From: Eledone cirrhosa
Taxonomy: Eukaryota
NCBI GenBank assembly: GCA_964016885.1
Contig: OZ024746.1
Location: forward strand, 45,136,001 to 45,200,000
Length of the DNA: 64,000 nt
Direction of reading: 5' to 3'
Part shown: positions 9,231 to 59,183 of the stretch, one piece after another
Layout of the letters: the number at the start of each line of letters is the position of its first letter
How positions within the stretch are numbered: position 1 is the stretch's first letter
The notes under the pieces: generated by a model
What the model was told of the DNA's origin: nothing
Database searches by the model: none
Seen by the model: only the letters and a program-made list of their open reading frames with translations
Program-made: the position numbers and the translations under genes

Positions 9231-9392
9231 ACACAGAATGCTTTACAACAAGGGCCTCGGTTTTGAAAAACGCTAAGATGCTCCCAAATTGTCTAGCCCT
9301 TGTTATATGTTGAAAAAATCTTGAAATTCACTACCGTGTGGAGCTCACAGAAGACATGTCTTCACTGTCTGACAGCCAATAATAATAATAAT

Positions 9393-9580
9393 AATTGAGT
9401 TTCTACTCTTGCACAAGGCCAGCTTTACCCCAGTGCACCACTGGTACTTTATTTTATCGACCTCGTAAGGATGAAAGGCAAAGTTAACCTCAGTGGATTT
9501 GAACTCAGAACGCAAAGGGCCATAATTATGCTGCAAAGCATGGTGTCTGAAGCTCTACCGATACTGTCAAACCACCGCCA
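9393..9580 (-). mobile_element. tRNA-derived SINE flanked by (AAT)n
   Basis: Minus strand has GGCGGTGGTTTGACAGTATCGGTAGAG (A box-like head), GAGTTCAAATCC (B box), the central GCCTTTCATCC...GTCGATAAAATAAAGTACCAG core and an (ATT)n tail. Confidence 0.85.
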
Positions 9581-9594
9581 ATAATAATAATAAT

Positions 9595-9765
9595 GATTTC
9601 TAGTATAGGCACAAGGCCAGTAATTTGGGTGGGAGGAGTCGATTAAATCGACACCAGTGCATTACTGGAGCTTCATTTTATCGACCCCATAAGGATTAAA
9701 GGCAAAGCTAATCTCGGCAGGATTTGAACTCAGAACCATGGTGTTGCCGCTCTACCGATACTGCT
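9595..9765 (-). mobile_element. tRNA-derived SINE, second tandem copy
   Basis: Same core and B box. 3' end GGCCTTGTGCCTATACTAGAAATCATTATTATT. Confidence 0.85.
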
Positions 9766-9970
9766 GATATAATTATCAAGGACCATAAAGACACTATATG
9801 TTTCTTAATTGACATGAATTCTCCATCAGGTCGTATCATTTCCTCGAAATGATAAGAAAGAAAACTGAAAAATATTTGAACCAGATACCTGGAAAGCCAT
9901 CTACAATAGATACAGAAAATAGTGCTGACTAGTATTGTACATGTTCTGAGAAAGGCATTATCAATTTAAA
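9766..9970 (+). pseudogene. R4/Dong endonuclease C-terminal remnant
   Basis: IIIKDHKDTICFLIDM and IQKIVLTSIVHVLRKALSI* match the end of the Dong ORF at 13413-13712 (IQKIVLMGTAHILRKILSI*). Confidence 0.75.
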
Positions 9971-10059
9971 TAACTTGTAAAGGCAGTTACTGATGTTTGT
10001 GCTCTTATGGCAACATCTGTATGACAAATGATTGTAAAGTGTGCGTAATATCAAATTGT

Positions 10060-13000
10060 ACCTCATGTGTCAGGTTGACAGTCGGCATGGTTTGGGAAAG
10101 CTCTAGTCTTGGTTGACATTCGTTCTAGAAGTGGTAACACGAAATGATTACCCCTTGGCGGATAAGGATAAAACGCGAAAAAATAAAGTAAATGTCTAAT
10201 GATAAAATCTCATACCGGATCGGCCGTCACCCGGGTAAAAAAGGGCCGCGTCCCTCAGAGAGGAACCAGACTGGGGTCGAAAAAAATCAGCTAATGGTTC
10301 AAACCTTCCCATCACTTCGGAGCTGGAGACCTCCCATAACCGGAATACTCCTACTGTTGGCCCTCCATGCTCACCACCAAGAAATCCAAAGAAAAAGAGA
10401 GAAAAATGGTCAAGGGAAGATAATAAAGAAGTCCTTGAGGCTTTCTACACTGCCATGTACTACCCATCAAATACATCGAATACAGAACAGACATATATCA
10501 ACTGGAATAAGAAACATCTCGAAAACAGAGGCTATATTGACAGTAACAAACTAGCCAATATACGAAGAAATATTGTAAGAAAAAAGTTACTAACTGATAT
10601 AGAAATTGATCAGATCAAGCTATTAGCACAAAGTCAGCGAAGGGAAAATGAAACATGTGTCAGTGAAAACGAGGTAAACTGTAACACTTCGAATCCCAGG
10701 GTTGGGGCGGAATCACTGGCAACAGAACAAATTAAAGAAAGGATCGAAAAAGTGGAGGGAGTGCATGCTCAGGATGAAACTCCAAATGAAAATAATGAGA
10801 TCGTACAAAATATAATACACAAGACTAACATAATTCTCAAAAACATTATCATCACAAACAAACTAAACATTACTGATTTAAATCATCTCTATTATCTATC
10901 GGCTAAAGTCACCACTTACTTATGTGGAGTGAAGATGAAAAAACAAAGGAATTCCCACAAGAAATCTACTTGGCAAGAGAACATCAATCGCCAAATAAAC
11001 CTTCTCCGATCTGACATAGAAATGTTAACAAACTATAAAGTAGGTGAACATGTTAAACAAACTAAACTTAGAAAATTGAAAAAAAAGTACAGTATAAAAT
11101 CAACATGTGACATAGACATGCTGATAGAAATAATCAAGCAAAAAAGTGTCGGCCAAAGCTGCTCGTATAAGGCGCTTTGAAAAACGATCTAGATTCTATA
11201 AGGACAATAATATGTTCAAAAACAACCAAAGAAACTTCTACAGAAAAATTGGTAAGTCAACAATAGCTGCTAAATCAATACCACCCAAGGAGGAAGTGCA
11301 AGAATTCTGGGAAAAGATCTGGGCCGAAGAAAAAGTTCATAACATACATGCCCCATGGATAGACAGACAAATGAAAGATACAGCTCACCTTGAGGAACAA
11401 ACATGGGAAAATATAACAGTTGAACAGTTGCGCTTGGCTCTAAGAAAAACCAGCAAATGGAAATCCCCAGGAAAAGACAAAATACAAAACGTTTGGATAA
11501 ATGCCTTCACAGAGTCTCATGAGCTGTTAGCCCAACTTTACAATGAAATAGTTAAGGAGCCAGAAAAAATACCTTCATGGCTAGTTAACGGCATTACATT
11601 CCTGCTTCCGAAGAATGATGAGATAAACAATCCCAAAAATTACAGACCGATAACTTGCTTGACCACAATGTATAAAATTTTAACATCAGTCCTAACTGAA
11701 TACACATATGACCACCTGATAACAAATGACCTATTTCCTATTGAGCAGAAAGGGTGTAAACGAGGCTCATATGGCTGTAAGGATCAGCTTCTGGTTAACA
11801 AAATGATACTGGAAGATTGTCATAATAGACACAAAAATCTATCGATTGCTTGGATAGATTATAAAAAAGCATTTGATAGTTTGCCACACAGTTGGATTGA
11901 AAAATGTTTAGAGATTTTCAAAGTATCCCCCGTTGTCAGGAGGTTTTTGTCATTCAGTATGAAGACATGGAAAACGACACTCCTTTTGAATAGTGAAACA
12001 AAATCACTGGAAGCTGGAGAAGTTAATATTAATTGTGGAATTTTTCAGGGTGACTCTTTATCACCGCTTTTATTCTGCATCGCCCTTATACCATTAAGTA
12101 AAATGCTCAATGAAACAAAACATGGATATAAAGTCTATGACAAAACCATTAATCACCTGTTCTACATGGATGACCTGAAACTATTTGCAAATAATGATGA
12201 ACAATTGCAAGGGCTATTATCCACTGTGAAGCAGTTCAGTGATGACATTAAAATGGAGTTTGGACTAGATAAATGCGCCAAAGCAACGTTCACAAGAGGA
12301 AAGCTGCTGAAGAGTTCAGACATTAATCTTGATTGGGGGAACGTGATAAGAGAACTTGATCAAGAAAAAACTTACAAATATCTAGGTGTTTGTGAAGGAG
12401 ACGGAATCAAGCACTCGACAATGAGGGAAAAGATAAGGAAGGATTGTTACCGCAGAGTAAGAGCAATCTTAAGAACGGAATTGAATGCAAGGAATAGGAT
12501 CGATGCCATAAACACGCTTGCCATACCATTAGTAACCTACAGTTACAATGTCATCAACTGGTCGAGCACAGAGATCCGTAGGCTCGATACAAAAATCCGA
12601 AATTCTTAACCATGCACAGAATGCATCACCCTAAGGCAGACATAGATAGAATATACCTCCCTAGGAAAGAAGGAGGACGTGGGTTAATCCAGTTAGACAT
12701 TGCGTTGAAAACTGCAACAATTGGATTGTCCACATATCTAAGGGAATCACATGATTGGATGATCAAACTCGTTTTGAAACACGAAAGCACCAAAAGATCA
12801 TATTCCATTACAAAAGATGCACAAAGATACAGTAATGGACTACAAATTTCAGAAGTCCCATTTACTGCTGAAATGGAAAACACAGAAAAAGCAAAGCAGG
12901 TAAAAGTAACTGCAAAGAAAGAACTGCTACAGAAACTGGCTAAGAAATGGCAAGAAAAGCCTCTGTATGGAAAATACCCAGAGCGAGCTAACAATCCTGT

Positions 13001-13854
13001 TGTTGACAAAACTTTAACCCATCAGTGGTTGGCATCCTCTGGACTGAAATCGGAGACTGAAGGACTGATTATATCGGCACAAGATCAGTGTCTGCCAACA
13101 AAAAATTACCAAGCCAACATAATAAAAAATGGGTGCAGCCCATTATGCCGTGTATGCAAAAAACAACCAGAGACCATTGACCATATAATTTCAATGTGCA
13201 GTCCTATAGCTCCAACCGAATACCTAAACAGGCATGACAGAGCTGCACAATACATACATTGGATAATGTGTAAGCATTTTGACCTGCCCCATCAAAAGAA
13301 TTGGTGGGAGCATCAATCACCTCCCATACTTGAAAAAGATCACATCTCAATCTTGTGGAACTTTAGCATCTAAACAGACCGAAAAATAGATGCAAGCAGA
13401 CCTGATATAATATTGAAAAACTTTCAAAAGAGGGTATGCCGGCTAATTGATATGTCTGTTCCAATAGACAAGAATGTATCCATAAAAACATTTGAAAAAT
13501 TGAGCAAGTATAAGGACCTGGAGATAGAAATTGGAAAAATGTGGAAATTGAGAACTAAAACAATACCAGTGGTTGTAGGCGCTCTGGGAATGATACCTAA
13601 GGGGTCTAATGATTACATATCGCAAATCCCAGGAAACCCGCGTATAGGAGAAATACAAAAGATAGTACTAATGGGAACTGCCCATATACTAAGGAAGATT
13701 CTGTCAATATAAGTACATCACAAGTCTAAACACTAAAGATGCATGTGTGAATATGTGTGTTCTTTCTTGAACATGGCGGACCTTGTTGTCTCTTGAGGTC
13801 ACTGGTTGTGACTTGGTGATAACTCGTATGAACATAAAGCAAGATAAATGCAAC

Positions 13855-13855
<1 letters not shown>
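10060..13855 (+). mobile_element. R4/Dong-clade non-LTR retrotransposon, family A, near full length (5' boundary approximate)
   Basis: Single-ORF layout: N-terminal domain, RT, CCHC, restriction-like endonuclease, short 3' UTR ending in (AAT)n. Bombyx Dong is known to target TAA repeats. Confidence 0.92.
10239..13712 (+). pseudogene. Dong-A polyprotein (RT + CCHC + PD-(D/E)xK endonuclease), broken by two frameshifts (~11150, ~12605) and one stop (13371-13373)
   Basis: Frame open from 10239 (KKREKWSREDNKEVLEAFY). Motifs: KSPGKD, NYRPITCL, WIDYKKAFDS, GIFQGDSLSP, FYMDDLKLF, YKYLG, CRVCKKQPETIDHIISMC, RPDIILK...LIDMSVP...EKLSKY. Confidence 0.92.

Positions 13856-13911
<56 letters not shown>
13856..13911. 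repeat. (AAT)n target/tail run between Dong-A and Tx1 copy 1
   Basis: Read directly. Further runs at 19932-19955, 22665-22721, 28652-28681, 31466-31496, 36650-36705, 36896-36911, 37098-37136 and 37197-37208 separate each successive element. Confidence 0.97.
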
Positions 13912-13913
<2 letters not shown>

Positions 13914-14174
13914 TTTCTTTATTAACCACAAGGGTTTACATAAAGTAGACATTAAGGACAGTGCAGGACAATGCAGGACGGTACAAATGGGCATTTCTGC
14001 GTGTAAAAAAAACAAAAACAGAGGATGTAACAAAAATAACAATGAAAATAACAATGAAAAATTCCCCAATAGGGGGGAGACTTCCGAGGGACATTTGTGG
14101 AGAAAGCCCAGTAAAAAGCCACAATGACCCTGACCACCAAGGCAAGTGCCCTCTCCCAGTTTTCCACCTTTAGT

Positions 14175-17100
14175 TTACAGATATATACTCAGAGTCGGCC
14201 CATTCACTCGGGCCATTCTTGCTTCTCTCACCCATCTTTCAACAAAATGCTGGGAAGAGAGCACTTCCTTCTCTACTCTGATTTTCCTTTTCAAATGAAA
14301 TTTGAAAAAGTCAATCAGAGCATCACCGAAGAGGTAAGTGCTCGTCTTCAGCCCTTTCAAACGTGTCCACCATACTATCTCTTTCGCCATGGCCACCAGA
14401 CAGATAAAAACTGCCTGCCCTTCCCGGCTAAAGGAGGAGGGCGGGGCAATCCTCACGATAGACTCAGATGATAGCTGGATCCGTCCTAAACGCGACAGCA
14501 GGTGTTCGACATAAACCCACAAGTCAGCAATTTTCGGACGCTGGACGAGTGCGTGCAGGACGGTTTCGTCGCCCTGCGCACATCTCGGACATGCCCGGCT
14601 GACGGCACCTCCATGCATGTAGAGTTTATCCCGAACTGGCAAGGCTCCTCGGTAGCACTGCCAGGCCAGAGATTTCTGGAAGTTGTCCATAGGCCCTGGC
14701 CCGAAAGTCCTTCCGAAGAGATTGGCTAGTTGATTTTCGTCGACGCCTAGGGTTTCCCCAAGTACGTCGTCGCTCTTCCCCTCCACTAATCCTCTATAGA
14801 ACGCCGAGGTGGAGTTTCCACCGATCACATTGCCCGATTGGTCGAGGGCTGTGAGCGCCTGAAGACATTCCAGTCTCCAGGCGCTCCCTCTCGGTCTTCG
14901 CTTGACCCAGGACTGCAGCTCCGTCAAGGAAACGAGCTGGGGAAAAACGCGTCTAGCAAACGGCGACCACACCTGATCACCGTCGAGGAAGAGGTGGAGA
15001 TGTCGTAGCCTGAGCGCGTGCCTGCGCATCATCAGCCACGGCATGCCCAGCCCTCCACGTAGCGGGTGTTGACAACAGATGGACCGCCTGACCATCGGAG
15101 CACGTCCCTTCCACAAAAAGCGAAAGAGCAAACGCTCCAGCGCAGTCAGGCGAGGCTTAGGACAAGGTACGACGGTTAGGCGGTAGCAGATGACAGACGC
15201 GATGTACGCGTTAGCCACCTCCGCTCGAACTTTCAGGGATAGCTTCCTCTCCGCCCATTTCTGGGTGAGAGAAGCCACCCTGCTCGTCACCTCGTCCCAG
15301 TTTTTGTCCGTCTGGAGGTCCGGACCGAACCAGACCCCTAGCAATTTAACCGGTCCGTCCGTCCAGCGCCCGACGACGCTGTTGGACGGCATGGACCTGC
15401 CTCTCCAGGTGCCGAGCTGCAGGCCCACTGACTTTTCCTGGTTGATCATTGCTCCTGTCACCGCTTCGTATTCTCTTAGTGTAGTGCCGATCGCCTCGAT
15501 GTGTTTGGCGTTCGACGCCACTACGGTGACATCGTCCGCATATGCTGACACGGATCTTCCGCATCCTAGTTCGCGCGGGACTCCCCTCAACGTCTCCAGT
15601 TTGTGCAGTAATGGCTCGAGAGTCAATACGTACAAGAGGGACGAGAGGGGACATCCTTGGCGGACCGAGCGCATGATGTTGAACGGTTCCGACAGGTGAC
15701 CGTTCACTCTCACCACAGAGCAGATGTCGCTGTGCATGGCAGCGATCCAGCCTCTGAAGACGGGCCCAAAGCCAGCCGCCCTCAGGACTGCCGCTAGGTA
15801 ACGATGGTCGACCCTATCGAAAGCTTTCGACTGATCTAAATTGATCAAGGACCCACCCGTGCCAGGTTCCCTAGCTACCCTCTCTATGATGTATCGCATG
15901 AGGTGGAGGTTGTCGTGGATGGATCTGTCGGGAATGGCGCATGTCTGCGCCTCTCCCACCAGACCACCAACGACAAGCGCCAACCTCTTTGCTAGCACCT
16001 TGGCCAAAATCTTAAACTCTGTGTTTAGCAGAGTTATGGGCCGGAAATTGTCTATGTTATCCCCCTTGTTCGGATCCTTTCTCAGCAGTGCCACCGCTCC
16101 TCGGCTCACAGAACTGGGAATTCTCCCGTTCTGTTGCCAGTTGCAGTAGACGTCCGCCAAGAGGCCTCCGAACAAGTCTGGCATCTGTACGTAAAGTTCA
16201 TAGGGCAGACCATCCAAACCAGGCGATTTACCCCTTGTGCAGCCAGTCATTGCCTCCCGTACTTCAGCGGCTGTTATCGGCTTTTCGCAACACTTCGCCT
16301 CAGTGGCCGAGAGCCGCGGCAGTCCGTCGAGGTAGACACTAAAGTCCATCCCTCTACCCGGCCCCCCGCTGCCCCCGAACAGCTGAGCGAAGTGTCGCTG
16401 AAAAGCTTCACACATTTGCCCGGGATCGAGTAGCATGCGCCCGTCGTGGTCCACCAAAGACCGGATCGTGGCTTTGTTGCCACGACGCGCCTCCGCCACT
16501 CGGGCCCATTGAACGGCTTTCGTCCCCTCGTGTCTGAGAGCACGCACCCTAGCTCTGACAACGCAGCCTTCGTGCTTTGCATTGAAGAATTGGTCAAGGG
16601 CCAATTTCGCCGCAAGCACGTCGGTCGCAATGCCTTTGCTAAGCGCCTCGTCTAATTTTCTAACTAGTTCTCCCTCTGCTCTATTTTTCTCTATTGCTAA
16701 AGCCTTACTAAACCTAATCGATTCTATTCTAATCGCTCTTTTCAGAGCAAACCACCACTTGTTGTTGACGATGGCCCCCGTCAACGCCCGCTTAACTAGT
16801 TCGCTAATCCGGTCTCTGTAGGCCTTGCGCGCTGGTAAGGACGCGTTTAGCTTCCAGTAGCCGGGTCCTCGTCTATGAAGCCTATCTAAGTCAACCACAC
16901 AGATCACGAATTTGTGGTCCGTGTAGCTGACTATCTTGAATTGTGGACAGCCTATGCTAGACCTATCTATTTCCCTACAAAATACTCTATCTAGATATGA
17001 TCTGGATGACCCTATGCGATTTGTCCAAGTCCACATTGGCACATTCGGGAAATCCAATCGGTACCTGTCAGACAGTTCAAAACGCCTGAGCAGGTTGGTG

Positions 17101-17594
17101 AGGCTCTTGCACCCTCCACCCCTATCCGCTAATCCCACACAGTCCCAGCGTGCATCTAAGATCCCGTTCCAGTCGCCCACTAACACTAAAGAGCGGGACG
17201 TTCCAAGAAAGGTCTCCAGACGCCGGAAGAAATCAGGCCGCCCTGCTCCTGTCGGGGCATAGACGGCCACTAGCCTGAAAGCTTGCCCGTCTCCGCTGGT
17301 CACGTCCAGCACCACCAGCTTACCCTCTGGGTCCAGGAAGATGGCCCGTATGGCGAGATCCAAACCTCTCCGAAAAAGCACAGCAACTCCTCCACCCGAT
17401 CCAGGACGGCTGGGAGATGCGTACACATCGTAGCCGCCGAAGATCGGTGCGAAGGCCCGTGCTTCGGAGATTCTGGTCTCGCTGATGGCCACTACATCTA
17501 TGTTTAGTGACCTGAGGTCGTTGAGCAGGTGACCCTGCTTCCATGACGACCCCAAGCCACGCGCATTTATGCTGCCTATTCTGAGTGAGGTCAT
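14175..17594 (-). CDS. Tx1 ORF2: AP endonuclease + reverse transcriptase + C-terminal Cys-rich domain, intact, 1139 aa from ATG
   Basis: MTSLRIGSINARG, AISETR, AVYAP, VGDWN, SYLDRV, TDHK (APE). KSPGLDG, NFRPITLLN, LDQSKAFDRV, SVRQGCPLS, AYADDV, KLLGV (RT). CPRC...ETVLHALVQ, where the final Cys is Arg in this copy and Cys in the others. Confidence 0.95.
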   Translation of the reverse strand: MTSLRIGSINARGLGSSWKQGHLLNDLRSLNIDVVAISETRISEARAFAPIFGGYDVYASPSRPGSGGGVAVLFRRGLDLAIRAIFLDPEGKLVVLDVTSGDGQAFRLVAVYAPTGAGRPDFFRRLETFLGTSRSLVLVGDWNGILDARWDCVGLADRGGGCKSLTNLLRRFELSDRYRLDFPNVPMWTWTNRIGSSRSYLDRVFCREIDRSSIGCPQFKIVSYTDHKFVICVVDLDRLHRRGPGYWKLNASLPARKAYRDRISELVKRALTGAIVNNKWWFALKRAIRIESIRFSKALAIEKNRAEGELVRKLDEALSKGIATDVLAAKLALDQFFNAKHEGCVVRARVRALRHEGTKAVQWARVAEARRGNKATIRSLVDHDGRMLLDPGQMCEAFQRHFAQLFGGSGGPGRGMDFSVYLDGLPRLSATEAKCCEKPITAAEVREAMTGCTRGKSPGLDGLPYELYVQMPDLFGGLLADVYCNWQQNGRIPSSVSRGAVALLRKDPNKGDNIDNFRPITLLNTEFKILAKVLAKRLALVVGGLVGEAQTCAIPDRSIHDNLHLMRYIIERVAREPGTGGSLINLDQSKAFDRVDHRYLAAVLRAAGFGPVFRGWIAAMHSDICSVVRVNGHLSEPFNIMRSVRQGCPLSSLLYVLTLEPLLHKLETLRGVPRELGCGRSVSAYADDVTVVASNAKHIEAIGTTLREYEAVTGAMINQEKSVGLQLGTWRGRSMPSNSVVGRWTDGPVKLLGVWFGPDLQTDKNWDEVTSRVASLTQKWAERKLSLKVRAEVANAYIASVICYRLTVVPCPKPRLTALERLLFRFLWKGRAPMVRRSICCQHPLRGGLGMPWLMMRRHALRLRHLHLFLDGDQVWSPFARRVFPQLVSLTELQSWVKRRPRGSAWRLECLQALTALDQSGNVIGGNSTSAFYRGLVEGKSDDVLGETLGVDENQLANLFGRTFGPGPMDNFQKSLAWQCYRGALPVRDKLYMHGGAVSRACPRCAQGDETVLHALVQRPKIADLWVYVEHLLSRLGRIQLSSESIVRIAPPSSFSREGQAVFICLVAMAKEIVWWTRLKGLKTSTYLFGDALIDFFKFHLKRKIRVEKEVLSSQHFVERWVREARMARVNGPTLSIYL

Positions 17595-17627
17595 GTTTAA
17601 ATAGAGTGGAAAGATGGGAAAGACCAC

Positions 17628-19718
17628 TTACCGTACTTTTGGTAGAGGAGGGATGGTTTTTACATCCCTTTTCACTTGATCGTCTGGTGAAGGGACCGTT
17701 GAATCGTCCCTTCGGCTGGTCGTCGGCTCTTCTAAGAGAATGTCTGAATATACTCTTCGATTGATGGTTCCTCCTAGGTCCCTGAAATCACCAACTGCGT
17801 TGGGGAATTTCGTTTTAATGTTTGTGTATTGTTTCTGTGCTATTTTTAGCAGTCTTATGTTAGTTGGCGTTTTGATTGGTGCTGGTATTATGTAGTCCTG
17901 TTGTGAAATGTCTGTGTGTTCAATTATGTAAGTCATTAGTTTCTTGTGTGTGTTTATTGCCGTGCATTTGTTTTTCTGGGGGTGGGGTGTGGTTCTGCTA
18001 TTTTCTTGTCGTTGTTGCTGGGTGTGTGTGTTTTGTTGTTGTGTTTGCGATGTTGGTGCTTGTGGTGGTGGTGTTGAAGGTGTTGTTGGCGGTGGGGTTG
18101 TCGCCGGTGGTGATGGTGGTGCTGGTGTGGGTGGTGATGGTGTTGGTGGTGTTGCTGCTGTGGGTCTCTTTGCAGTAGACTTTACCCTTTTCTCATTTCT
18201 TTCCTCCCTTTTCAAAGGCGACGATGCGCTGCTTCTGCGTTTGTGCCTTCTTGCGACCTTTTGCCATCCCTCTCCCACCTCACACTCCATGTCTGATTCT
18301 GTAAGGTCGGGGAGGGGTACCAGCTCCACTCTTTCACTTGTTGTTGTTGGTGATGTTTGCACTGGAGTCTCTGTTGCAGCTGCATTTGGTATTGCTGTTG
18401 TTGTTGTTAATATTTCCACTGCTGCTGCTGTCTTTGATTTCCGTGGAGTGGGTATGGGTGCCACGGACCTATCGTTCCTGGTTGCCGCTTGTCCTGTTGC
18501 TGGTAGCCGTGGAGCCGGATTCGGAAGCAGGGGGGTTTTCTCCTTTCTCAGGGTCTTCTCGTTGCAGAAGGCCCTGAGGTGAGTCTTCGATCCACAGCGA
18601 AAGCATTTCGGGCGTTTGCCCTCAACACTTATGGGCAGTTGAGTGCCGTTATCGAAGTCTATCACATCCGGGATAGCTTCGATGCACTCCTGGTTGGTTT
18701 GGATTAGCATCTCAATGGAGGAGCCGACCCAATCTTCTCTTACTTTTTTCTGTACTTGCAGTACAGTTGTTTTGTCCTCGATTCCGACGAGGACAGACGC
18801 GGCCAGCCAAGAAGGGGTCATTCCGGGGGGGACGTGGGTCAGTTTGACCCTCACAATTTTTTGCCCGCAGTAGGAGGGCACCAACACCATTTCCTCGCTC
18901 CTTTAGGTCACTACTGATTGGGCCTTTGCCTCCTGGGGTGTGGCAAAAAGTACGTCTACGGTGGCGTATTTTTTGCCTCGGGTGATGTGCGTTTTCCTCT
19001 GCCACACAGACCCCAAGGCTTTTTGTATTTGGGCCTCTGTGGCTCTTTCCACCCTACGGGATTTTGTACTTACTGTACGGTACGTGACCGTACAGTGCTC
19101 TTGGGTTTCGAAAAATTTTTTCGCTGCCTTGCAGATTGCTCGGTGTACGTTCTTTGTCACCATCTTCTTCGCTTCCTCTAATTCCTCATTTGTTATGAGG
19201 ATTGTTTCCAAGTTTTTCGCAATACCTGCAAATGAGATTGGTTTTTCTCTGCTGTTGTTGTTGTCGTCAGAGCTGCTGGTACTTTTGTTGCTGCAGGTAC
19301 TACGACTACTGCCTCCGCCGCTGTTGCTGTGGTTGTTGTTGGTGTTGCTGCTGCTAATGCTGTTGTTGTTTATGCTGCTGGTGATGCTGTTGCGGCTGCT
19401 ACTGTTGTTTTCATTGTCACTGTTGCTGTTGTTATTACGGCTGCTACTGCTATTATTCCTGACGTCAGACGAATGAACTGGGTTTTCGTATTTCCCGCAC
19501 ACCTGTTTCGTCGCTGTCGTCGTCGTCGTGGAGAAACCTTGCACGCTTTGCACGAGACTTTTCTTTTCTTTCGTCGCTTGCGAAAGAGAAGGGAGGGAGA
19601 GAGACACATTTAAAGAAGGGAGGGAGAGAGACAATCTTCTCTCTGCTGTAGTGATGATTGAGGAAGAAGAAGACGGAATGAGTGGGAGTGACGTATGAAA
19701 TTTCTTTTTGGTAGCCAT
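17628..19718 (-). CDS. Tx1 ORF1 (gag-like RNA-binding protein), one frameshift near 18900
   Basis: MATKKK start, S/N-rich tract, ISFAGIA motif, RRM-like segments (ATVDVLFATPQEA; VRVKLTHVP), zinc knuckle CFRCGSKTHLRAFC, Pro/Thr-rich tail. Copy 3 reads through the frameshifted position (SLVTLRSEEMVLVP). Confidence 0.88.
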
Positions 19719-19955
19719 GTTTTTTTGTTTAAAATGAAATTTTGGGTACAAAACCCCAATAACTGGTTATTTAACCCCGAAGGGCCAAATAACGGACAGA
19801 AAGACCCCTCTCACGAGGACGAGGGTGTCTTTATCAACAATTTGGTTCAAGTTTTAAACAATTTACAATTGTTTTAACGGTTAAAAATTACTATACCTTA
19901 CAGAGCCGAGCCTCCGTCAACCATGGCATTCAATAATAATAATAATAATAATAAT

Positions 19956-20836
19956 GTTTTCTTTATTAACCACAAGGGTTTACATAAAGTAGACATTAAG
20001 GACAGTTCAGGACAATACAGGACGGTACAAATGGGCATTTCTGCGTGTAAAAAAAAACAGAGGATGAAATAAAATAACAAAGAAAAATTCCCCAATAGGG
20101 GGGAGACTTCCGAGGGACATTTGTGGAGAAAGCCCATTAAAAGACCACAGTGGCCCTGACCACAAGGGCAAGTGCCCTCTCCCAGTTTTCCACCTTTAAT
20201 TTACAGACACATACTCCGAGAAGGTCCATTCATTCGGGCCATACTTGCTTCTCTCACCCATCTTTCAACAAAATGCTGGGAAGAGAGCACTTCTCTCTCT
20301 ACCTTGATTTTCCTTTTCAGATGAAATTTGAAAAAGTTAATCAGGGCATCACCGAAGAGGTAAGTGCTCGTCTTCAGCCCTTTCAAACGTGTCCACCATA
20401 CTATCTCTTTCGCCATGGCCACCAGACAGATAAAAACTGCCTGCCCTTCCCGGCTAAAGGAAGAGGGCGGGGGAATCCTCACGATGGATTCAGCTGATAG
20501 CTGGATCCGCCCTACACGTGACAGCAGGTGTTCGACATAAACCCACAAGTCAGCAATGCTCGGACACTGGACGAGTGCGTGCAGGACGGTTTCGTCGCCC
20601 TGTGCGCATCTCGGACATGCCCGGCTGACGGCACCTCCATGCCTGTAAAGTTTATCCCGAACTGGCAAAACACCCCGGTAGCACTGCCAGGCCAGGGATT
20701 TCTGGAAGTTGTCCATAGGCCCCGGCCCGAAAGTCCTTCCGAAGAGATTGGCTAGTTGATTTTCGTCGACGCCTAGAGTTTCTCCAAATACGTCGTCGCT
20801 CTTCCCCTCCACTAATCCCCTATAGAACGCCAAGGT
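19956..20836 (-). mobile_element. Tx1 5'-truncated copy (3' 880 bp), fused directly to Dong-B1
   Basis: Collinear with 13912-14810. Similarity stops at AACGCCAAGGT, where Dong-B sequence CTTGCCATGGG begins. Confidence 0.93.
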
Positions 20837-22664: not shown

Positions 22665-22673
22665 AATAACAAC

Positions 22674-22721
<48 letters not shown>

Positions 22722-22723
<2 letters not shown>

Positions 22724-28651: not shown

Positions 28652-28681
28652 AATAATAATAATAATAATAATAATAATAAT

Positions 28682-31465
28682 CAAAGCAACAGCAAATAGG
28701 GTGAGGAGATACTTGATATAAAAGGGAGAGGAAACAACAGACAAGAAAGAGCAGAACCTTGGTGGAAGAAACGACTGAGTGGTCAAATCAGGGAAATGAG
28801 AAATGACATTGGAAAGCTTGAGTCCCTACTGAATGGGACACTAAAAAACATAGACACTAAAAATAGACTGGAAATAAAGTACAAAACTAGGAGGAAAAAG
28901 CTAAATATTATCATAGAGGAACTGAAGCAACGCATTGTAGCAAAAAGTGCAAACATCAGGCGATACGAGTACAGAGTCAGTCAGTATAAACAGAACCGCA
29001 TGTTCGACAACAACCAGAAGATGCTGTTTGGACAGCTTGAAGGGAAAGAAAGAGGCAACGACCTGATCCCTGGGGTGGAACAAACTAAAACATTCTGGTG
29101 AGGAATATGGGAGCAGGATGTTAGACATAATGACCAGGCAGTGTGGATTGAGACAGTACAGAAGGAGATTAGTGAACAGGCACACCAACAAACTGATTTG
29201 AGTATCACAGTTGAAACTCTTAAAGGGCAGGCCAAAAAACTAACCAACTGGAAATCACCAGGCCCAGCTGGTGTGCAGGGCTATTGGATTAAAAATATAA
29301 CATTCCTGCACCCGAAACTAACAACCATGTTCAATGACTGCTTGATGTCAGGTGAGGTACCAGAGTGGTTGACAAAAGGTACCACAGTTCTGATAATGAA
29401 AGAGCGAATCAAGGGTAATGATGTTACCAACTATAGGCCTATCACATGTCTGTCCGTAATGTGGAAACTGTTGACGAGCATTATGTCTGAGGAAATCTAC
29501 CATCACCTCCACACAAACAACGTGTTACCGGACGAACAGAAAGGATGCCGAAAGAAGTCACGTGGTACAAAGGACTAGTTACTTATTGATAAGATGGTAA
29601 TGAGGAATTGCAAGAGGAGACACACTGATCTTGCCATGGGATGGATAGACTACAGAAAGGCATTTGACATGGTGCCTCATTCTTGGATCACCAAAAGCCT
29701 GGAGATCTTCAAGGTGGCAGATAACATCAGACAGTTGTTGGGCAAAAGTATGAAGTCCTGGGAAACAGAGTTGACATCAACTGGAGAATCCTTGGGAAGC
29801 GTGAAGATCAAGAGAGGTATCTTCCAGGGAGATAGCCTGTCCCCTCTGTTGTTTGTCCTTGCCCTGATGCCCCTGACCAGTGTACTGCGAAAAGTGAGAG
29901 CAGGATACAAGTTGGGAAAGGGAGAGCTTACCATCAATCACCTCCTCTTCATGGACGATCTTAAGCTCTTCGGGAAAAGTGAGAAGGAGTTTGATGTGTT
30001 TGTTGACACTGTCCGTATTTTCAGCAGTGATATATGTATGCAATTTGGTATTAGTAAGTGTGGAGTCATTGTGATGAGGAGGGGTAGGTTGAGCAGAAGT
30101 AACGGAATCCAGATATCAACAGGTGAGATGATAAATGAAATTGACTCTGAGGAAGGATACAAGTATTTGGGCGTTCTGGAGGCTGATGGCATAAAGAACA
30201 AAAAAATGAAGGAATTGTTAAGAACTGAATACATTCGTAGAATAAGGAGCGTATTGAAGTCACATCTGAACAGCAGAAATGCCATAAGCGCAGTACATTC
30301 CCGAGCTGTGTCTATTATTAGGTACAGTGCGGGAATTCTGAGATGGAATGTTGCTGAACAAAAAGAAATGGATAGGAAGACTAAGAAGCTATTGACTATC
30401 TACAACATGTTCCACAAGAGGAGTGATGTCGATAGACTCTACTTAAGGAGATCTGAGGGTGGAAGAGGTCTTATCAGCATAGAGGACTGTGTTCAGATGG
30501 AGAAAAACAACCTACACAAATACGTGACTGATAGTAAGGAGCCAATGCTCAGAACTGTACTGAAGGAGGGGACAATAGGCCAGGGGATGTCCAAGGAGGA
30601 AATAACATCAAGGAGAAAGAGCAGCCCTCAGGAAAAATCCCTTCATAGTACCTTCTTTGAGAAAACTGAATTTAGAGATCCACAGACATGGAACTGGTTG
30701 AAAGGAGGAGACCTTAAAAAGGCTACAGAAGGAATGTTAATGGCTGCGCAGGAGCAGGCCCTCAAAACGAAGTGGTTGAAGCACCATATTTACAAGGAGG
30801 TGCCTAGCCCACTGTGCAGGATCTGTGGAGAGAGAGAGAGGAGAGTGTGGCTCACATTGTATCCGAGTGTAAACACCTAGCCCAGACCCACTATAAGGGC
30901 TGGAGACATGATGTGATGGGCTGGGTGATCCACTGGCACCTGTGCAAAGTAAATAGTTTACCACATTCTGAGAAATGGTATGCGCATAAGCCACAGTCGG
31001 TGATAGAGAACGATCAGGTGAAGGTGCTGTGGGATTTTAGGATACAGATGGACAAGAAACTGGAACACAATAGGCCTAACCTGGTGGTTGTGGACAAAGA
31101 AAAAAGATCGTGCCTGATTGTGGATGTGGCCTTCCCATTCGACACGAGAGTGCAAGAGAAGGAGAGGGAGAAAATTAACCGATACCAGGACTTAAAGTGG
31201 GAGGTAAAAAGGATTTGGAACTGCCATGAAGTCAAAGTGATCCCGATTGTCATAGGCGCACTAGGGACTATCTCCAAAAGTTTCCAGGGATGGTTAAAGA
31301 AAATCGGCCCCTTCACGCTCTTTGGAAGGCTTCAAAAGGCATACTTGCTGGGAACAGCAAGAACCCTCCGATACGTCCTGAATATCTGAGGCCGCAGGTA
31401 GTGGCTTGATATTCATTTTAACAAACTTTCCAGTTAACTAACATCAATGACTGAGACTCAAGGAG
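28682..31465 (+). mobile_element. R4/Dong family B, 5'-truncated copy B2
   Basis: PWWKKRLSGQI N-terminal region, KSPGPAG, NYRPITCL, LFMDDLKLF, CCHC and endonuclease motifs. In-frame stops at 29099 and 29576; frameshift in the (GA)n run near 30835. (AAT)n on both sides. Confidence 0.93.
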
Positions 31466-31496
31466 TAATAACAATAATAATAATAATAATAATAAT

Positions 31497-34400
31497 GCTT
31501 TCTTTATTAACCACAAGGGTTTACATAAAGTAGACATTAAGGACAGTACATGAAAATACAGGACGGTACAAATCGGCATTTCTGCGTGTAAAAAAAACAG
31601 AGGATGTAATAAAAATAACAATGAAAATTTCCCCAATAAGGGGGAGACTTCCGAAGGAGATTTATGGAGAAATCCCATTAAAAGGCCAGTGACCCTGACC
31701 ACCAGGGCAAGTGCCCTCTCCCACTTTTCCACCTTTAATTTAAAGACACATACTCAGAGTAGGCCCATTCACTCGGGCCATACTTGCTTCTCTCACCCAT
31801 CTTTCAACAAAATGCTGGGAAGAGAGCACTTGCCTCTCTACCATGATTTTCCTTTTCAAATGAAATTTGAAAAAGTTAATCAGGGCATCACCGAAGAGGT
31901 ACGTGATCGTCTTCAGCCCTTTCAAACGTGTCCACCATACTATCTCTTTCGCCATGGCCACCAGACAGATAAAAACTGCCTGCCCTTCCCGGCTAGAGGA
32001 AGAGTGCGGGGCAATCCTCACGATGGACTCACCTGATAGCCGGATCCGTCCTACACGTGACAGCAGGTGTTCGACATAAACCCACAAGTCAGCAATGCTC
32101 GGACACTGGACGAGTGCGTGCAGGACGGTTTCGTCGCCCTGCGCGCATCTCCATGCCTGTAGAGTTTATCCCGAACTGGCAAAGCTCCTCGGTAGCACTG
32201 CCAGGCCAGGGATTTCTGGAAGTTGTCCATAGGCCCCGGCCCGAAAGTCCTTCCGAAGAGATTGGCTAGTTGATTTTCGTCGACGCCTAGAGTTTCTCCA
32301 AGTACGTCGTCGCTCTTCCTCTCCACGAATCCTCTATACAACGCCAAGGTGGAGTTTCCGATGACATTGCCCGATATGTCAAGGGCTGGAGGGCCTGAAG
32401 ACATTCCAGTCTCCAAGCGCTCCCTCTCGGTCTTCGCTTGACCCGTCAAGTAGACGAGCTGGGGAAAGACGTGTCTAGGAAACGGCGACCACACCTGATC
32501 ACCTTCGAGGAAGAGGTGGAGGTGTCGTAGCCTGAGCGCGTGTCTCCGCATCATCAGCCACGGCTTGCCCAGCCCTCCACGTAGCGGGTGTTGACAGCAG
32601 ATGGACCGCCTAACCATTGGAGCGCGTCCCTTCCACAAAAAGCGAAAGAGCAAATGCTCCAGCGCAGTCAGGCGGGGCTTAGGACAATGTACGACGGTCA
32701 GGCGGTAGTAGATAACGGACGCGATGTACGCGTTGGCCACCTCCGCTCGACCTTTCAGGCATAGCTTCTTCTCCGCCCATTTCTGGGTGAGAGAAGCCAC
32801 CCTGCTCGTCACCTCGTCCCGGTTTTTGTGCGTCTGGAGGTCCGGACCGAACCAGACCCCTAGCAATTTAACCGCTCCGTCCTTCCAGATCCCGAAGACG
32901 CTGTTGGGCAGCATGGACCTGCCTCTCCAGGGTTCATAGGGCAGACCATCCAAACCAGGCGATTTACCCCTTGTGCAGCCAGTCATTGCCTCCCGTACTT
33001 CAGCGGCTGTTATCGGCTTTTCGCAACACTCGGCCTCAGTGGCCTAGAACCGCGGCAGTCCGTCGAGGTAGACACTAAAGTCCATCCATCGATTCGGCCC
33101 GCCGCTGCACTCGAACAGCTCGGCGATGTGTCGCTGGAAAGCTTCACACATTTGCCCGGGATCGAGTAGCATGCGCCCGTCCTTGTCCACCAAAGACCGG
33201 ATCGTGGCTTTGTTGCCACGACGCGCCTCCGCCACTCGGGCCCATTGAACGGCTTTCGTCCCCTCGTGTCTGAGAGCACGCACCCTAGCTTTCGTGCTTT
33301 GCATTGAAGAATTGGTCAAGGGCCAATTTCGCCGCATCTACGTCGGTCGCGATGCCTTTGCTAAGCGCCTCGTCTAATTTTCTAACTAGTTCTCCCTCTG
33401 CTCTATTTTTCTCTATTGCTAAAGTCTTACTAAACCTAATGGACTCTATTCTAATCGCTCTTTTCAGAGCAAACCACCACTTGTTGATGACGATGGCCGC
33501 CGTCAACGATCGCTTAACTAGTTCGATAATCCGGACTATGTAGGCCTATCTAAGTCAAGCATACAGATCACGAATTTGTGGTCCGTGTAGCTGACTATCT
33601 TGAATTGTGGACAGCCTATGCTAGACCTATCTATTTCCCTACAAAATACTCTATCTAGATATGATATGGATGACCGTATGCGATTTGTCCACGTCCACAT
33701 TGGCACATTCGGGAAATCCAATCGGTACCTGTCAGACAGTTCAAAACGCCCGAGCAGGTTGGTGAGGCTCTTGCACCCTCCTCCCCTATCCGCTAATCCC
33801 ACACAGTCCCAGCGTGCATCTAAGATCCCGTTCCAGTCGCCCACTAACACTAAAGAGCGGGACGTTTCTAGAAAGGTCTCCAGACGCCGGAAGAAATCAG
33901 GCCGCCCTGCTCCTGTTGGGGCATAGACGGCCACTAGCCTGAAAGCTTGCCCTTCTCCCCTGGTCAGTCCAGCACCACCAACTTACATTCTGGGTCCAGG
34001 AAGATGGCCCGTATGGCGAGATCCAAACCTCTCCGAAAAAGCACAGCAACTCTTCCCCCAGATCCAGGACGGCTGGGAGATGAGTACACATCGTAGCCGC
34101 CGAAGATCGGTGCGAAGGCCCGTGCTTCGAATATTCTGGTCTCGCTGATGGCCACTACATCTATGTTTAGTGACCTGAGGTCGTTGAGCAGGTGGCCCTG
34201 CTTCCATGACGACCCCAAGCCCCGTACATTTATGTTACCTATTCTGAGTGAGGTCATGTTGAAATGGAGTGGAGAAGATGGGAAATACCACTTACCTTAC
34301 TTCTCGTAGAGAAAGGATGGTTTCTCCATCCCTTTTCACTTGATCGTCTGGTGAAGGGACCGTTGAATCGTCCCTTCGGCTGGTCGTCGGCTCTTCTATG

Positions 34401-36649
34401 AGTATATCCGAATATACTCTCCGGTTGAGAGTCCCTCCTAGGTCTCTGACATAACCAACTGCGTTGGGGAATTTCGTTTTAATGTTTTTGTAATGTTTCT
34501 GTGCTAGTCTTACCAGTCTTATGTTCGTTGGTGTTTTGATTGGTGCTGGTATGATGTAGTCGTGCTGTGAAATGTCTGTGTGTTCAATTATGTAAGTCAT
34601 TAGTTTCTTGTGTGTATTTATTGCCGTGCATTTGTTTTTCTGGGGGTGGGGTGTGATTCTGCTACTTTCTTGTCGTTGTTGCTGGGTGTGTGTGTTTTGT
34701 TGTTGTGTTTGCGATGTTGGTGCTTGTGGTGGTGGTGTTGAAGGTGTTGTTGTTGTTGACGGTGGGGTTGTCGCCGGTGGTGATGGTGGTGCTAGTGTGA
34801 GTCGTGATGGTGTTGGTGGTGTTGCTGCTGTAAGTTTCTTTGCAGTAGCCTTTACCCTTTTTTCATTTCTTTTCTCCCTTTTCGAAGGCGACGATCCACT
34901 GCTTCTGCGTTTGTTCCTTCTTGCGACCTTTTGCATACCTCTCCCACCTCACACTCCATGTATGATTCTGTGAGGTCGGGGAGGGGTACCAGTTCCACTC
35001 TTTCACTTGTTGTTGTTGGTGATGTTTGCAGTGGAGTTTCTGTTGCAGCTGCAGTTGGTATTACCGTTGTTGTTGTTAATTCTTCCACTGCTGCTGCTGT
35101 TCTTGATTTCCGTGGCGTGGGTATGAGTGCCACGGACCTATCCTTTCTGCTTGCCGCCTGTCCTGTTGCTGGTAGTAGGGGAGCCGGTTTCGGAAGGAGG
35201 GTGGTTTTCTCCTTTCTCAGGGTCTTCTCATTGCAGAAGGCCCTGAGGTGAGTCTTCGATCCACAGCGAAAGCTTTTCGGGCGTTTGCCCTCAACACTTA
35301 TGGGCAGTTGAGTGCCGTGATCGAAGTCTATCACATACGGGATAGCTTCAAAGCACTCCTGGTTGGTTTGGATTAACATCTCAATGGAGGTGCCGACCCA
35401 ATCTTCTCGTACTTTTTTCTGTACTTGCAGTACAATTGTTTTGTCCTCGATTCTGACGAGGACAGACGCGGCCATCCAAGAAGGGGCCATCCCGTGGGAG
35501 GGGAGGGGTGCATGAGTAAGTTTGACCCTCACAATTTTTCGCCCGCAGTAGAAGGGCACCAGCACCATTTCTTCGCTCCTTAGGGTCACTAATGATTGAG
35601 CCTTTGCATCCTGGGGTGTGGCAAAAAGCACGTCCACGGTGGAATATTTCTTGCCTCTGGTGATGTGCGTTTTCCACTGCCACACAGACCCTAAGGCTTT
35701 TTGTATTTGAGCCTCTGTGGCTCTTTCAACACTACGGGATTTTGTGCTTACTGTACGGTACGTGACCGTACAGTGCTGTTGGGTTTCGAAAAATGTTTCG
35801 GCTACCTTGCAGATTGCTCGGTGTGCGGTTTTCGTCACCATCTTCTTTGCTTCATGTAATTCCTCATTTGTTATAAGCATGGTTTCCAGGTTCTTTGCGA
35901 TACCTGCAAACGAGATTGGTTTTTCTTTCTTGTTGTTGTTGTTGTTGTCGTCAGAGCTGCTGTTACTTTTGTTGTTGCTGCTGGTACAAGGACTGCCGCC
36001 ACCGCTGTTGCTGTGGTTGTTGTTGTTGTTGTTGCTGCTGCTGCTGCTGTTGTTGTTGCTGCTGCTGATGCTCTTGCGGCTACTACTATTGTTTTCCTTG
36101 TCACTGTTGCTGCTGCTGCTGTTATTACGGCTGCTACGGCTATTATTCATGACATCAGACGAATGAAATGGCTTTCCGTATTGACCGCACACATTATTCG
36201 TCGTTGTCGTCGTCGTGGAGAAATGTTCCTCGGTTTGCACGTGCGCGAGGAAACTATCAGAAACTAAATCTTTCTTTTTCTTTACTAGCGTCGCTTGCGA
36301 AAGAGACGCGAGGGAGAGAGACACATTTAGAGAAGGGAGGGAGAGAGATAATCTTCTCTCTGATGTAGTGACGATTGAGGAAGAAGAAGACGGAATGAGT
36401 GAGAGTGACTTGTGAAAATTATTTTTTGTAGCCATGTTTTTTTTGGTTTAAAATGAATATTGGGCACAAACCCCGAATAAGCGGTTATTTAACCCCGAAG
36501 GGCCAAATAACGGGCAGAAAGAGCCCTCTCACGAGGAGGAGGGTGTTTTTATCTACAATTTGGTTAAAGTTTTAAACAATTTACAATTGTTATAGCGGTT
36601 AAAAATTACTGTACCTTACAGAGCCGAGCCTCCGTCAACCATGACATTC
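31497..36649 (-). mobile_element. Tx1 copy 3: both termini present, more diverged, RT core deleted
   Basis: Same termini; ORF1 at 34292-36435. At ~32930 the sequence jumps from the copy-1 equivalent of ~15409 to ~16196 (protein reads GLPYE-PWRGRS), removing roughly 790 bp of RT. Confidence 0.93.
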
Positions 36650-36705
<56 letters not shown>

Positions 36706-36710
<5 letters not shown>

Positions 36711-36895
36711 GTTTCCAGGGATGGTTAAAGAAAATTGGCTCCGCCCGCTTTTTGGAACACTTCAAAAGGCATGCTTGCTGGGAACAGCAAGAACCCTCCG
36801 ATACGTCCTGAATATCTGAGGCTGCAGGTAGTGGCTTGATATTCATTTCAACAAACTTTCCAGTTAACTAACATCAATGACTGAGACTCAAAGAA
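36706..36895 (+). mobile_element. R4/Dong family B, short 3'-terminal copy B3
   Basis: Matches 31277-31465 (SFQGWLKKIG...LRYVLNI* plus 3' UTR). Lies between AAT runs. Confidence 0.9.
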
Positions 36896-36911
36896 CAATA
36901 ATAATCATAAT

Positions 36912-37097
36912 TGTTTCTACTTTTGGCACAAGGCCAGCAAATACCCAGTACATTACTGGTACTTTATTTTATCGACTCCGTAGGGATGAAAGGCAAAGTT
37001 AACCTCGGCTGGATTTGAACTCAGATCGTATAGGGACGTATCTATGCTGGAAAGCATGTCCGACCCTCCACCGATACTGCCAATTCACCGCCCTAAC
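36912..37097 (-). mobile_element. tRNA-derived SINE, full length, in (AAT)n
   Basis: Head GGCGGTGAATTGGCAGTATCGGTGG, B box GAGTTCAAATCC, conserved core, tail AGAAACAATTATGATTATT. Confidence 0.88.
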
Positions 37098-37136
<39 letters not shown>

Positions 37137-37137
<1 letters not shown>

Positions 37138-37196
37138 TGCGGTGCCCCAGCATGGCCGCAGCAGGATGGCTGGAACAGGTAAAAGAGTAAAAGTGT
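37137..37196 (+). mobile_element. Short 3'-end fragment of a second retroelement
   Basis: GCGGTGCCCCAGCATGGCCGCAGCAGGATGGCTGGAACAGGTAAAAGAGTAAAAG is nearly identical to 59090-59147. Both copies sit inside microsatellites. Confidence 0.7.
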
Positions 37197-37208
37197 AATA
37201 ATAATAAT

Positions 37209-37355
37209 TGTTTCTACGTTAGGCACAAGGCCAGCAATTACCCAGTGCATTACTGGTACTTTATTTTATCGACCCCGAAAGGATGAAAGGCAAAGTCAAC
37301 CTCGGCGGGATTTGAACTCAGAATGGCAAGGGCCGTAACTCTATACGTCAAAGCA
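37209..37355 (-). mobile_element. tRNA-derived SINE, 5'-truncated
   Basis: B box, core and tail CCTTGTGCCTAACGTAGAAACAATTATTATT. Confidence 0.88.
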
Positions 37356-37374
37356 TAATAATGATGATGATTAT

Positions 37375-49760: not shown

Positions 49761-49998
49761 ACACGAAATGTGTACAGACTTCTGGTGCTCTTTCTATTTA
49801 TTAATCTTAAACTCTTTGTAATAATGCTAATTTCTATTTTGCCAAACAAGTAAATCCTTATCTCTGTTTCACACTCTCTTTATCTCTTTATTTTTCTCTC
49901 TCTCTATCTCTCTCTCTCTGTCTCTCTCTCTCTGTCTCTCTCTCTCTGTCTCTCTCTCTCTGTCTCTCTCTCTCTATCTATCTATTTATCTATCTATC

Positions 49999-59089: not shown

Positions 59090-59090
<1 letters not shown>

Positions 59091-59146
59091 GCGTTGCCCC
59101 AGCATGGCCTCAGCCGGATGGCTGGCACAGGTAAAAGAGTAAAAGC

Positions 59147-59147
<1 letters not shown>
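59090..59147 (+). mobile_element. Short retroelement 3'-end fragment in (TA)n
   Basis: Near-identical to 37137-37196. Confidence 0.7.

Positions 59148-59183
<36 letters not shown>

Follow-up and report, generated by a model that had tools for sequence, protein, structure and literature searches.

AAT microsatellites as a shared insertion target of Dong-type and Tx1-like retrotransposons with opposite orientation in the octopod Eledone cirrhosa

In a 64,000-nucleotide stretch of the Eledone cirrhosa genome (hereafter the window; GCA_964016885.1, contig OZ024746.1, positions 45,136,001 to 45,200,000; contig C6 of the 2,996-Mb assembly), Dong-type and Tx1-like long interspersed nuclear elements (LINEs) and a short interspersed nuclear element (SINE) form an array interspersed with short (AAT)n runs. 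The Dong-type LINEs carry a restriction-like endonuclease (RLE) and all lie on the + strand, and the Tx1-like LINEs (Tx below) carry an apurinic/apyrimidinic endonuclease (APE) and all lie on the - strand. How do two unrelated lineages come to share one repeat with opposite polarity? A sequence-only reading of the window had proposed that two endonuclease chemistries converged on this repeat, nick opposite strands and build a self-growing alternating array. Self-comparison, open reading frames (ORFs) and Pfam placed all the elements where that reading had placed them (Table 1), and its diagnostic bases were present at the copies named. Runs of at least three AAT units numbered 14 on the + strand and 0 on the - strand of the window, 11 of the 14 falling within 9378-37355. 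The description of AAT at nearly every boundary held for most of them and failed at the Dong A 5' end (10101) and at the junction of a Tx fragment with Dong B (20836). Genome-wide, the shared target, the polarity, the independence of the insertions and their clustering were all observed directly. The favoured explanation is that two unrelated LINE lineages insert independently in AAT runs, in opposite fixed orientation, probably by nicking opposite strands.

Genome counts were made with exact motif patterns and are all lower bounds; reversed-pattern controls gave zero for all element motifs. For Tx they returned 9,671 3' ends and 2,548 subfamily A 5' motifs, and for Dong 10,261 tails of family B and 3,840 of family A. 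The SINE 3' end with ATTAT behind it occurred 124,852 times, and AAT runs of six units began at 44,770 places where the preceding base was not T. AATAAT followed the forward-strand Tx 5' motif in 1,208 of 1,224 cases (reverse-strand matches, which were double counted, were left out), and was found at 0.47% of random positions within the allowed offsets. In a survey of the 5' side, which resolved all but one of 63 Tx copies, every full-length copy ended at AAT (12/12 and 21/21 for two subfamilies with unrelated 5' untranslated regions (UTRs)). At least one AAT unit stood at 29 of 30 Tx 3' ends, and at least two units at 26 of 30. Dong tails were followed by AAT in 53/56 (family B) and 18/19 (family A, the smaller sample) cases, and truncated Dong 5' ends, with dozens of different break points, abutted AAT in 67 of 90 cases against a background of 5.6%. 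Across the AAT run at these 67 junctions, 54 neighbours could be identified: 26 were Tx in antisense, 25 Dong in sense and 3 SINE in antisense, and none was reversed. Read on the sense strand, both ends of Dong thus meet AAT, and both ends of Tx meet ATT. These results bore out the proposal of a shared target with fixed opposite orientation. The runs at element ends had a median of 8-9 AAT units (30 each), and in an evenly spaced 400-kb sample 9 of 11 runs of at least six units touched Tx or Dong LINEs, those runs coming from two loci. Runs of (GAA)n often replaced or adjoined AAT at element ends (loci L035, L040, L047, L093, L096, L098 and L116), which suggests unit drift or a further repeat-targeting family.

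Several observations weigh against this reading. Of 29 truncated or interrupted Tx copies, only 13 had AAT at the 5' side, 15 had none and 1 had ATT; 2 of the 13 were weak calls, and several of the 15 were subfamily boundaries or later damage. The 5' repeat of full-length copies could therefore be partly carried by the RNA. AAT was also missing at 23 of the 90 Dong 5' ends, and about one in seven neighbour pairs within 20 kb had opposite polarity to that expected (10/74 Tx-Dong, 5/41 Tx-Tx). One contig, over its first 60 Mb, supplied most of the flank samples. Taken further, the first point leads to an explanation in which the AAT repeats are RNA-carried tails and leaders, made by 3' slippage and 5' read-through, with little real target choice by one or both elements. 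The drop from 33/33 in full-length to 13/29 in truncated Tx copies and the single AAT unit at some Tx 3' ends are what it would predict. However, truncated Dong 5' ends are incapable of carrying a leader and still abut AAT in most cases, and the Tx figure of 13/29 far exceeds the 5.6% background. Moreover, at L108 a truncated Tx in an imperfect run has a duplication of 16-17 nt whose A-rich strand ends in AATAAT, and the target duplications of the SINE carry ATTAT on both sides. We therefore regard carried repeats as a very unlikely explanation of the array.

The sequence-only reading further held that each insertion leaves target for the other family, so that arrays grow and alternate. Growth through re-use of flanking runs was upheld: 38/99 and 36/99 gaps for the two motifs were shorter than 15 kb, against about 3 (3.3) expected. 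Alternation as a rule was not. Adjacency counts drew on contig C1, using the first 100 places listed for each motif. The element ends preceding 100 Tx 3' ends included 22 Dong B tails, 7 Dong A tails and 7 subfamily A 5' ends. From the supply of runs, 14.7-22.9 Dong B tails were expected, an excess of 1.0-1.8 fold only. The range reflects the share of Dong B tails among long runs, 15-23% according to whether about 70,000 or 44,770 runs are assumed; the former total was extrapolated from sampled runs (7 of 11). On that total, Dong B tails were capped by Tx in 22 of 88 cases against 12.2 expected (p 0.005), and the window itself alternates three times, both of which speak for an active preference of each family for the ends of the other. 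With the 44,770 counted runs the expectation rises to 19.0 (p 0.44), and a mild excess would be expected anyway if longer runs make better targets. Tx caps Tx 5' ends (7/22) at least as often as Dong B tails or Dong A tails (7/43), and the element ahead of a Dong copy is Dong as often as Tx; like-with-like tandems are equally common. We give little credence to such mutual preference; any run of the right polarity serves as a target.

The claim that the array is not a simple tandem duplication stood. Alignments with 44 Tx copies and 28-34 Dong B copies, all taken from contig C1, placed each window copy nearest to copies elsewhere, at 96-99% identity; its window mates, at 92-96%, came only 9th-45th of 47 among Tx and 15th-29th among Dong B. 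Every window copy thus has closer kin on another contig, so the array was built through separate insertions. Duplication of a Dong-Tx block, or an assembly artefact, is close to negligible: a BLAST match does span the Dong B-AAT-Tx junction of two units (20836-24131 with 29629-32931, 90%), but window copies are nearer to other-contig copies (97-99%) than to one another, their truncation points differ, and the same architecture with other break points occurs at dozens of loci.

Target-primed reverse transcription starts at a nick in the strand antisense to the element. From this priming geometry we infer that the Dong RLE would nick the T-rich strand and the Tx-like APE the A-rich strand, each nick priming reverse transcription. 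For Tx, the first nick would come immediately 3' of ATAAT, in the A-rich strand, and leave a duplication of about 11-19 nt, as judged from SINE duplications and one LINE case; pure repeats mask such duplications, and SINE insertions in unique DNA reveal them. AATAAA is placed 6 nt before the 3' end of Tx, and for this reason the transcript likely extends into the downstream repeat and could anneal to the primer. Each insertion would split a run and leave about 8-9 units at each end, and old insertions would supply targets for new ones of any family. Arrays would then grow passively and in random order, with orientation alone fixed.

Truncated Tx and Dong copies fused head-to-head without AAT were seen at 20836 in the window and at L139, L105, L113, L301 and L114. 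Two-template twin priming was considered for them and not upheld: of the 23 Dong 5' junctions without AAT, 5 (7 with two called by eye) had a Tx neighbour, versus 26 of 67 with AAT (p 0.62), the test against Dong neighbours gave p 0.17, and later deletion explains the fusions equally well. The bolder idea behind it, that cDNAs of Tx and Dong, each primed from its own strand of a single cut run, occasionally join head-to-head, gained no excess and is in our view unlikely.

The identity of the two lineages was assessed from their proteins. In the Tx element, ORF2 contains Exo_endo_phos, RVT_1 and zf-RVT domains, with the APE at the N-terminus, its catalytic motifs present, and the zinc finger at the C-terminus. 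Its best PDB match was L1 ORF2p (175 bits, versus 80 for R2). ORF1 matched no Pfam family, and its translation holds a CX2CX4HX4C knuckle; an ORF1 with a CCHC zinc knuckle is a feature of the Tx1 clade. ORF2 scored 316-321 bits against named Tx1-type fish proteins (BAC82605.1 and YTX2-named) versus 175 against human L1. In a quick tree of 46 reverse transcriptase (RT) rows, with no vertebrate L1 row, the octopod LINE joined the named Tx1-type proteins (SH-aLRT 87) on its own branch, outside the 99-supported group of named fish Tx1 proteins. These results indicate that the element behaves like Tx1 and likely belongs to that clade. Assignment to the Kibi/Koshi lineage was rejected, as its target is ATT and not (TC)n or (TTC)n and it branches apart from the teleost group. 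The nearest named protein came from Argonauta hians (73% identity), and the ESM Atlas held nothing beyond generic APE-RT clusters.

Tx subfamily B has its ORF2 in common with subfamily A, but a different ORF1 and 5' UTR, with the swap at the start of ORF2 (25 B-type copies). The fragment at 19956-20836 is Tx1-type, as the sequence-only reading said, but belongs to this second subfamily, with the other ORF1 and 5' UTR (96.8% identity to it, 92.2% to copy 1). At least two further Tx 5' types exist, and the three 5' ends examined (A, B and the L112 type) all begin with G directly after ATT; the loci concerned in these exchanges are L068:3220-9089, L077, L112, L115 and L023. At L077, at about 5.4-6.4 kb from its 3' end, a Tx copy of a diverged subfamily passes into sequence that resembles, by eye, an LTR-retrotransposon pol region. 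At L101 two near-identical 285-nt Tx stubs, separated by 2.5 kb, lie in a minisatellite with a unit that ends in ATAAT; they were duplicated along with the minisatellite array, and show insertion outside microsatellites at an identical nick-side sequence.

The elements on the + strand of the window include four RT copies from two families, with a CCHC finger and a restriction-like motif at the end. Both Dong A and Dong B have a single ORF (RT, CCHC finger and C-terminal PD-(D/E)xK nuclease) without an APE, and the RLE catalytic motifs are present. The best solved relative of Dong A was R2. Dong B gave a weak REase match (PF18741, E 0.047), full-length relatives of about 1,200 aa matched RVT_1 alone, and the best 120 of 1,202 matches included no named R4 or Dong protein. 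In structure and in target these RLE families appear to be Dong. A crude descriptor detected no HDV-like ribozyme on the fetched Dong 5' ends, nor did Rfam on the truncated window copies, where its sole match, isrG, scored 24.8 bits against a cut-off of 100 and was put down to chance. Many long Dong A copies (L123:1580-2600, L117, L127, L146, L182 and L052) carry a 5' extension of roughly 900 nt with a sense-strand SINE 3' fragment and, behind it, a short run of AAT; a 5' transduction that became fixed in a master copy is the likely origin.

A sister family of Tx, named X, lies at the far side of the window. Its motif occurred in 3,041 copies genome-wide. Among 30 loci (L235-L264), 15 had a TATC-type run as 3' flank under a strict rule and most of the rest began TATC-like; none was followed by an AAT or ATT run. 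T-rich sense flanks look like a property of the whole lineage, and the opposite polarity to Dong requires no co-evolution.

The four SINEs of the array had been listed correctly, and their link to the Tx tail had been missed; all four lie on the - strand, but elsewhere in the window the same SINE occurs in both orientations. Its core resembles a Deu/Nin domain; named octopus SINEs include OK, OR1 and OR2 (tRNA-Deu or tRNA-Core). Target duplications were found in 21 of 30 copies, all starting with ATTAT, 11-19 nt long in 20 and preceded by C in 13. The SINE thus inserts on the same strand and at the same nick-side sequence as the Tx family. When anchored at the 3' end, two SINE tails were identical to three Tx-lineage tails at 14-17 of 25 positions, a level reached by 0-27 of 20,000 random 25-mers, versus 4-9 for Dong tails. 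SINE and Tx tails share a five-base loop on a four-pair stem. In an alignment of seven rows, 92.6% of cells pair, against 18-57% in slid controls, and both sides change in 3 of the 4 stem pairs. We infer that the SINE is probably mobilised by the Tx-like lineage. As a passenger, it would be recognised through the 3' hairpin and land on short ATTAT sites with the same polarity as Tx. Several points weaken this partnership. The duplication pattern itself demanded ATTAT at the 3' side (in an unselected sample 24 of 30 rows had ATTAT by eye), the seven rows are related and hand-picked and the stem was read from them, and the SINE-LINE match is limited to about 25-40 nt. No LINE with the exact SINE stem was found with a single 17-nt pattern, all 14 matches being SINE-like and other LINE tails lying outside the survey.

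That last result leaves room for mobilisation by another LINE with an ATT tail, of CR1, L2 or RTE type, with the likeness to Tx tails being old inheritance or chance. Most SINE copies lie at short ATTAT sites rather than in long runs, CR1 and RTE prevail among known SINE/LINE pairs (PMC3747384), and both are reported as active in Octopus vulgaris (PMC13282606). Against another LINE stand the 3'-anchored tail identity, the covarying stem, and the strand and nick-side sequence held in common with Tx. We consider it a possible but rather doubtful source, and prefer the Tx-like lineage as the driver. A wider statement is favoured on balance, if only slightly: that a SINE among the most abundant of its octopod host depends for its spread on a Tx1-like LINE with a microsatellite target, by way of a stringent, structured 3' tail, and that these two, along with Dong, create and use up the majority of long AAT runs, working from opposite strands.

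Parts of this picture are known from other systems. Dong-R4 and L1-Tx1 are among the recently active LINEs of Octopus vulgaris (PMC13282606), a report in which the word "target" does not occur, and SINEs are described as the main octopus repeat class (PMC8967140). Dong targets TAA microsatellites (PMC3812793), and in Bombyx mori TAA lies upstream of its 5' end on the sense strand (PMC3774820). Dong of the R4 clade (Bombyx mori, DongAg, DongBg) thus resembles the octopod families in its TAA target, in TAA on the sense strand, and in a single ORF with RT and C-terminal RLE. The octopod genome differs in having two families with about 14,000 tail copies; B. mori Dong also has a 5' HDV-like ribozyme, of which our searches of octopod Dong 5' ends (Rfam on truncated window copies, a crude descriptor) found none. 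Kibi and Koshi of teleosts and the crocodilian (TTCC)n and (TTTC)n Tx1 families have two ORFs, an APE and a microsatellite target (PMC4494074), as does the octopod LINE. As described there, their targets are pyrimidine-rich units, which would match the octopod T-rich sense flanks if given in sense-strand notation. The octopod LINE differs from Kibi and Koshi in its ATT target (TATC in family X) and in its own branch; given that branch, its microsatellite targeting may be independent of the fish Tx1 group.

Parallel evolution of one target by an RLE and an APE element was described for Utopia and Keno (Tx1) in U2 snRNA genes (PMC4640811). There, identical 3' flanking U2 sequence implies the same orientation in a low-copy gene, whereas the octopod pair is oppositely oriented in a microsatellite that is dispersed and renews itself. 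TRAS and SART insert in opposite orientation in one insect telomeric repeat and build arrays (PMC10088271); both are R1-clade APE elements at telomeres, while the octopod pair combines two nuclease classes in interstitial runs. Parallel RLE/APE targeting and opposite orientation on one repeat are therefore both precedented, and the genome-wide AAT case is a variation on a known strategy. The SINE partnership is the most promising new lead. For crocodilian SINEU and Tx1-Mar, Tx1 machinery was likewise inferred from a shared target, with looser specificity than that of the LINE; SINEU ends in poly(A), and in the account of PMC4494074 no LINE has the 3' terminus of SINEU-1, whereas the octopod SINE, with at least 124,852 copies, has a structured shared tail. 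Stringent L1-clade SINE/LINE pairs are reported from maize and Chlamydomonas, and a monocot L1 lineage has a 3' hairpin with compensatory changes, as in the octopod tails. L1-clade-tailed SINEs numbered only 3 in a survey of more than 800 LINEs (PMC3747384). The literature we found held no AAT-targeting Tx1, no targets of octopus LINEs and no Tx1 partner of an octopus SINE; Repbase lay outside this search, so absence is not established.

If true, a structured stringent SINE tail would be rare for the L1 group, and the Tx-like LINE is a candidate motor of octopus SINE expansion with a mutable four-pair hairpin. (AAT)n offers a simple duplex on which APE and RLE nucleases can be compared strand by strand, and the ATT and TATC targets of elements at 70% DNA identity provide a family set for mapping a change in APE specificity. 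Long AAT microsatellites here would mostly be retrotransposon junctions, which bears on marker design and assembly.

Table 1 Retrotransposon copies and AAT runs located in the window
Feature	Position	Strand	Remarks
(AAT)6 run	9378..9395	+	3' side of first SINE
tRNA-type SINE copy	9396..9579	-	A/B boxes read by eye; no tRNA gene found by ARAGORN
(AAT)5 run	9580..9594	+	
SINE, longer form	9595..9770	-	final 7 bases are those of Tx; tail 17/25 identical to Tx subfamily C
Old 3' remnant, Dong-type	9776..10100	+	C-terminal motif by eye; no match among fetched loci
Dong family A, 5'-truncated	10101..13857	+	RT, CCHC finger, RLE motif; frame breaks near 11134-11180 and 12582-12609, stop at 13371
(AAT)18	13858..13911	+	common to Dong A tail and Tx 3' end
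Tx copy 1, subfamily A, full-length, 6.0 kb	13912..19931	-	ORF1 with CCHC knuckle, one stop at about 18903; ORF2 14178-17594 open, 1,139 aa (APE, RT, zf-RVT); final 35 nt hold 3' hairpin and AATAAA
(AAT)8	19932..19955	+	separates two Tx copies, head-to-tail tandem
Tx subfamily B 3' fragment	19956..20836	-	head-to-head fusion with Dong B, without AAT
Dong family B, 5'-truncated	20837..22664	+	
AAC/AAT tail and (AAT)16	22665..22721	+	
Tx copy 2, subfamily A, full-length	22722..28651	-	frames broken
(AAT)10	28652..28681	+	between Tx 5' end and truncated Dong B 5' end
Dong family B, 5'-truncated	28682..31465	+	RLE region 30808-31389
Tail and (AAT)8	31466..31496	+	
Tx copy 3, both ends present	31497..36649	-	internal deletion at 32931
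(AAT)18	36650..36703	+	
Dong B 3' stub, 190 nt	36707..36896	+	
SINE copy	36912..37097	-	tail in short AAT run 36897-36911; head against (AAT)13 37098-37136
SINE copy, 5'-truncated	37209..37356	-	behind (AAT)4 37197-37208
Sister family X of Tx	49994..51727	+	70% DNA identity, same 3' hairpin, (TATC)n next

Minor observations concern the SINE tail and the surroundings of the array. The 5' UTR of Tx subfamily B (L068) contains an 11-nt match to the SINE tail hairpin, and a copy at L088 is joined to a SINE exactly there. The final 60 nt before 9378 have a short motif in common with the Tx subfamily B 5' end, without a BLAST match, and heavily decayed Dong-type RT remnants occupy the + strand upstream of the array (6600-9377). 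A 60-nt repeat fragment occurs twice in the window (92% alike), at 37137-37196 between AAT runs and at 59090-59149 between TA runs.

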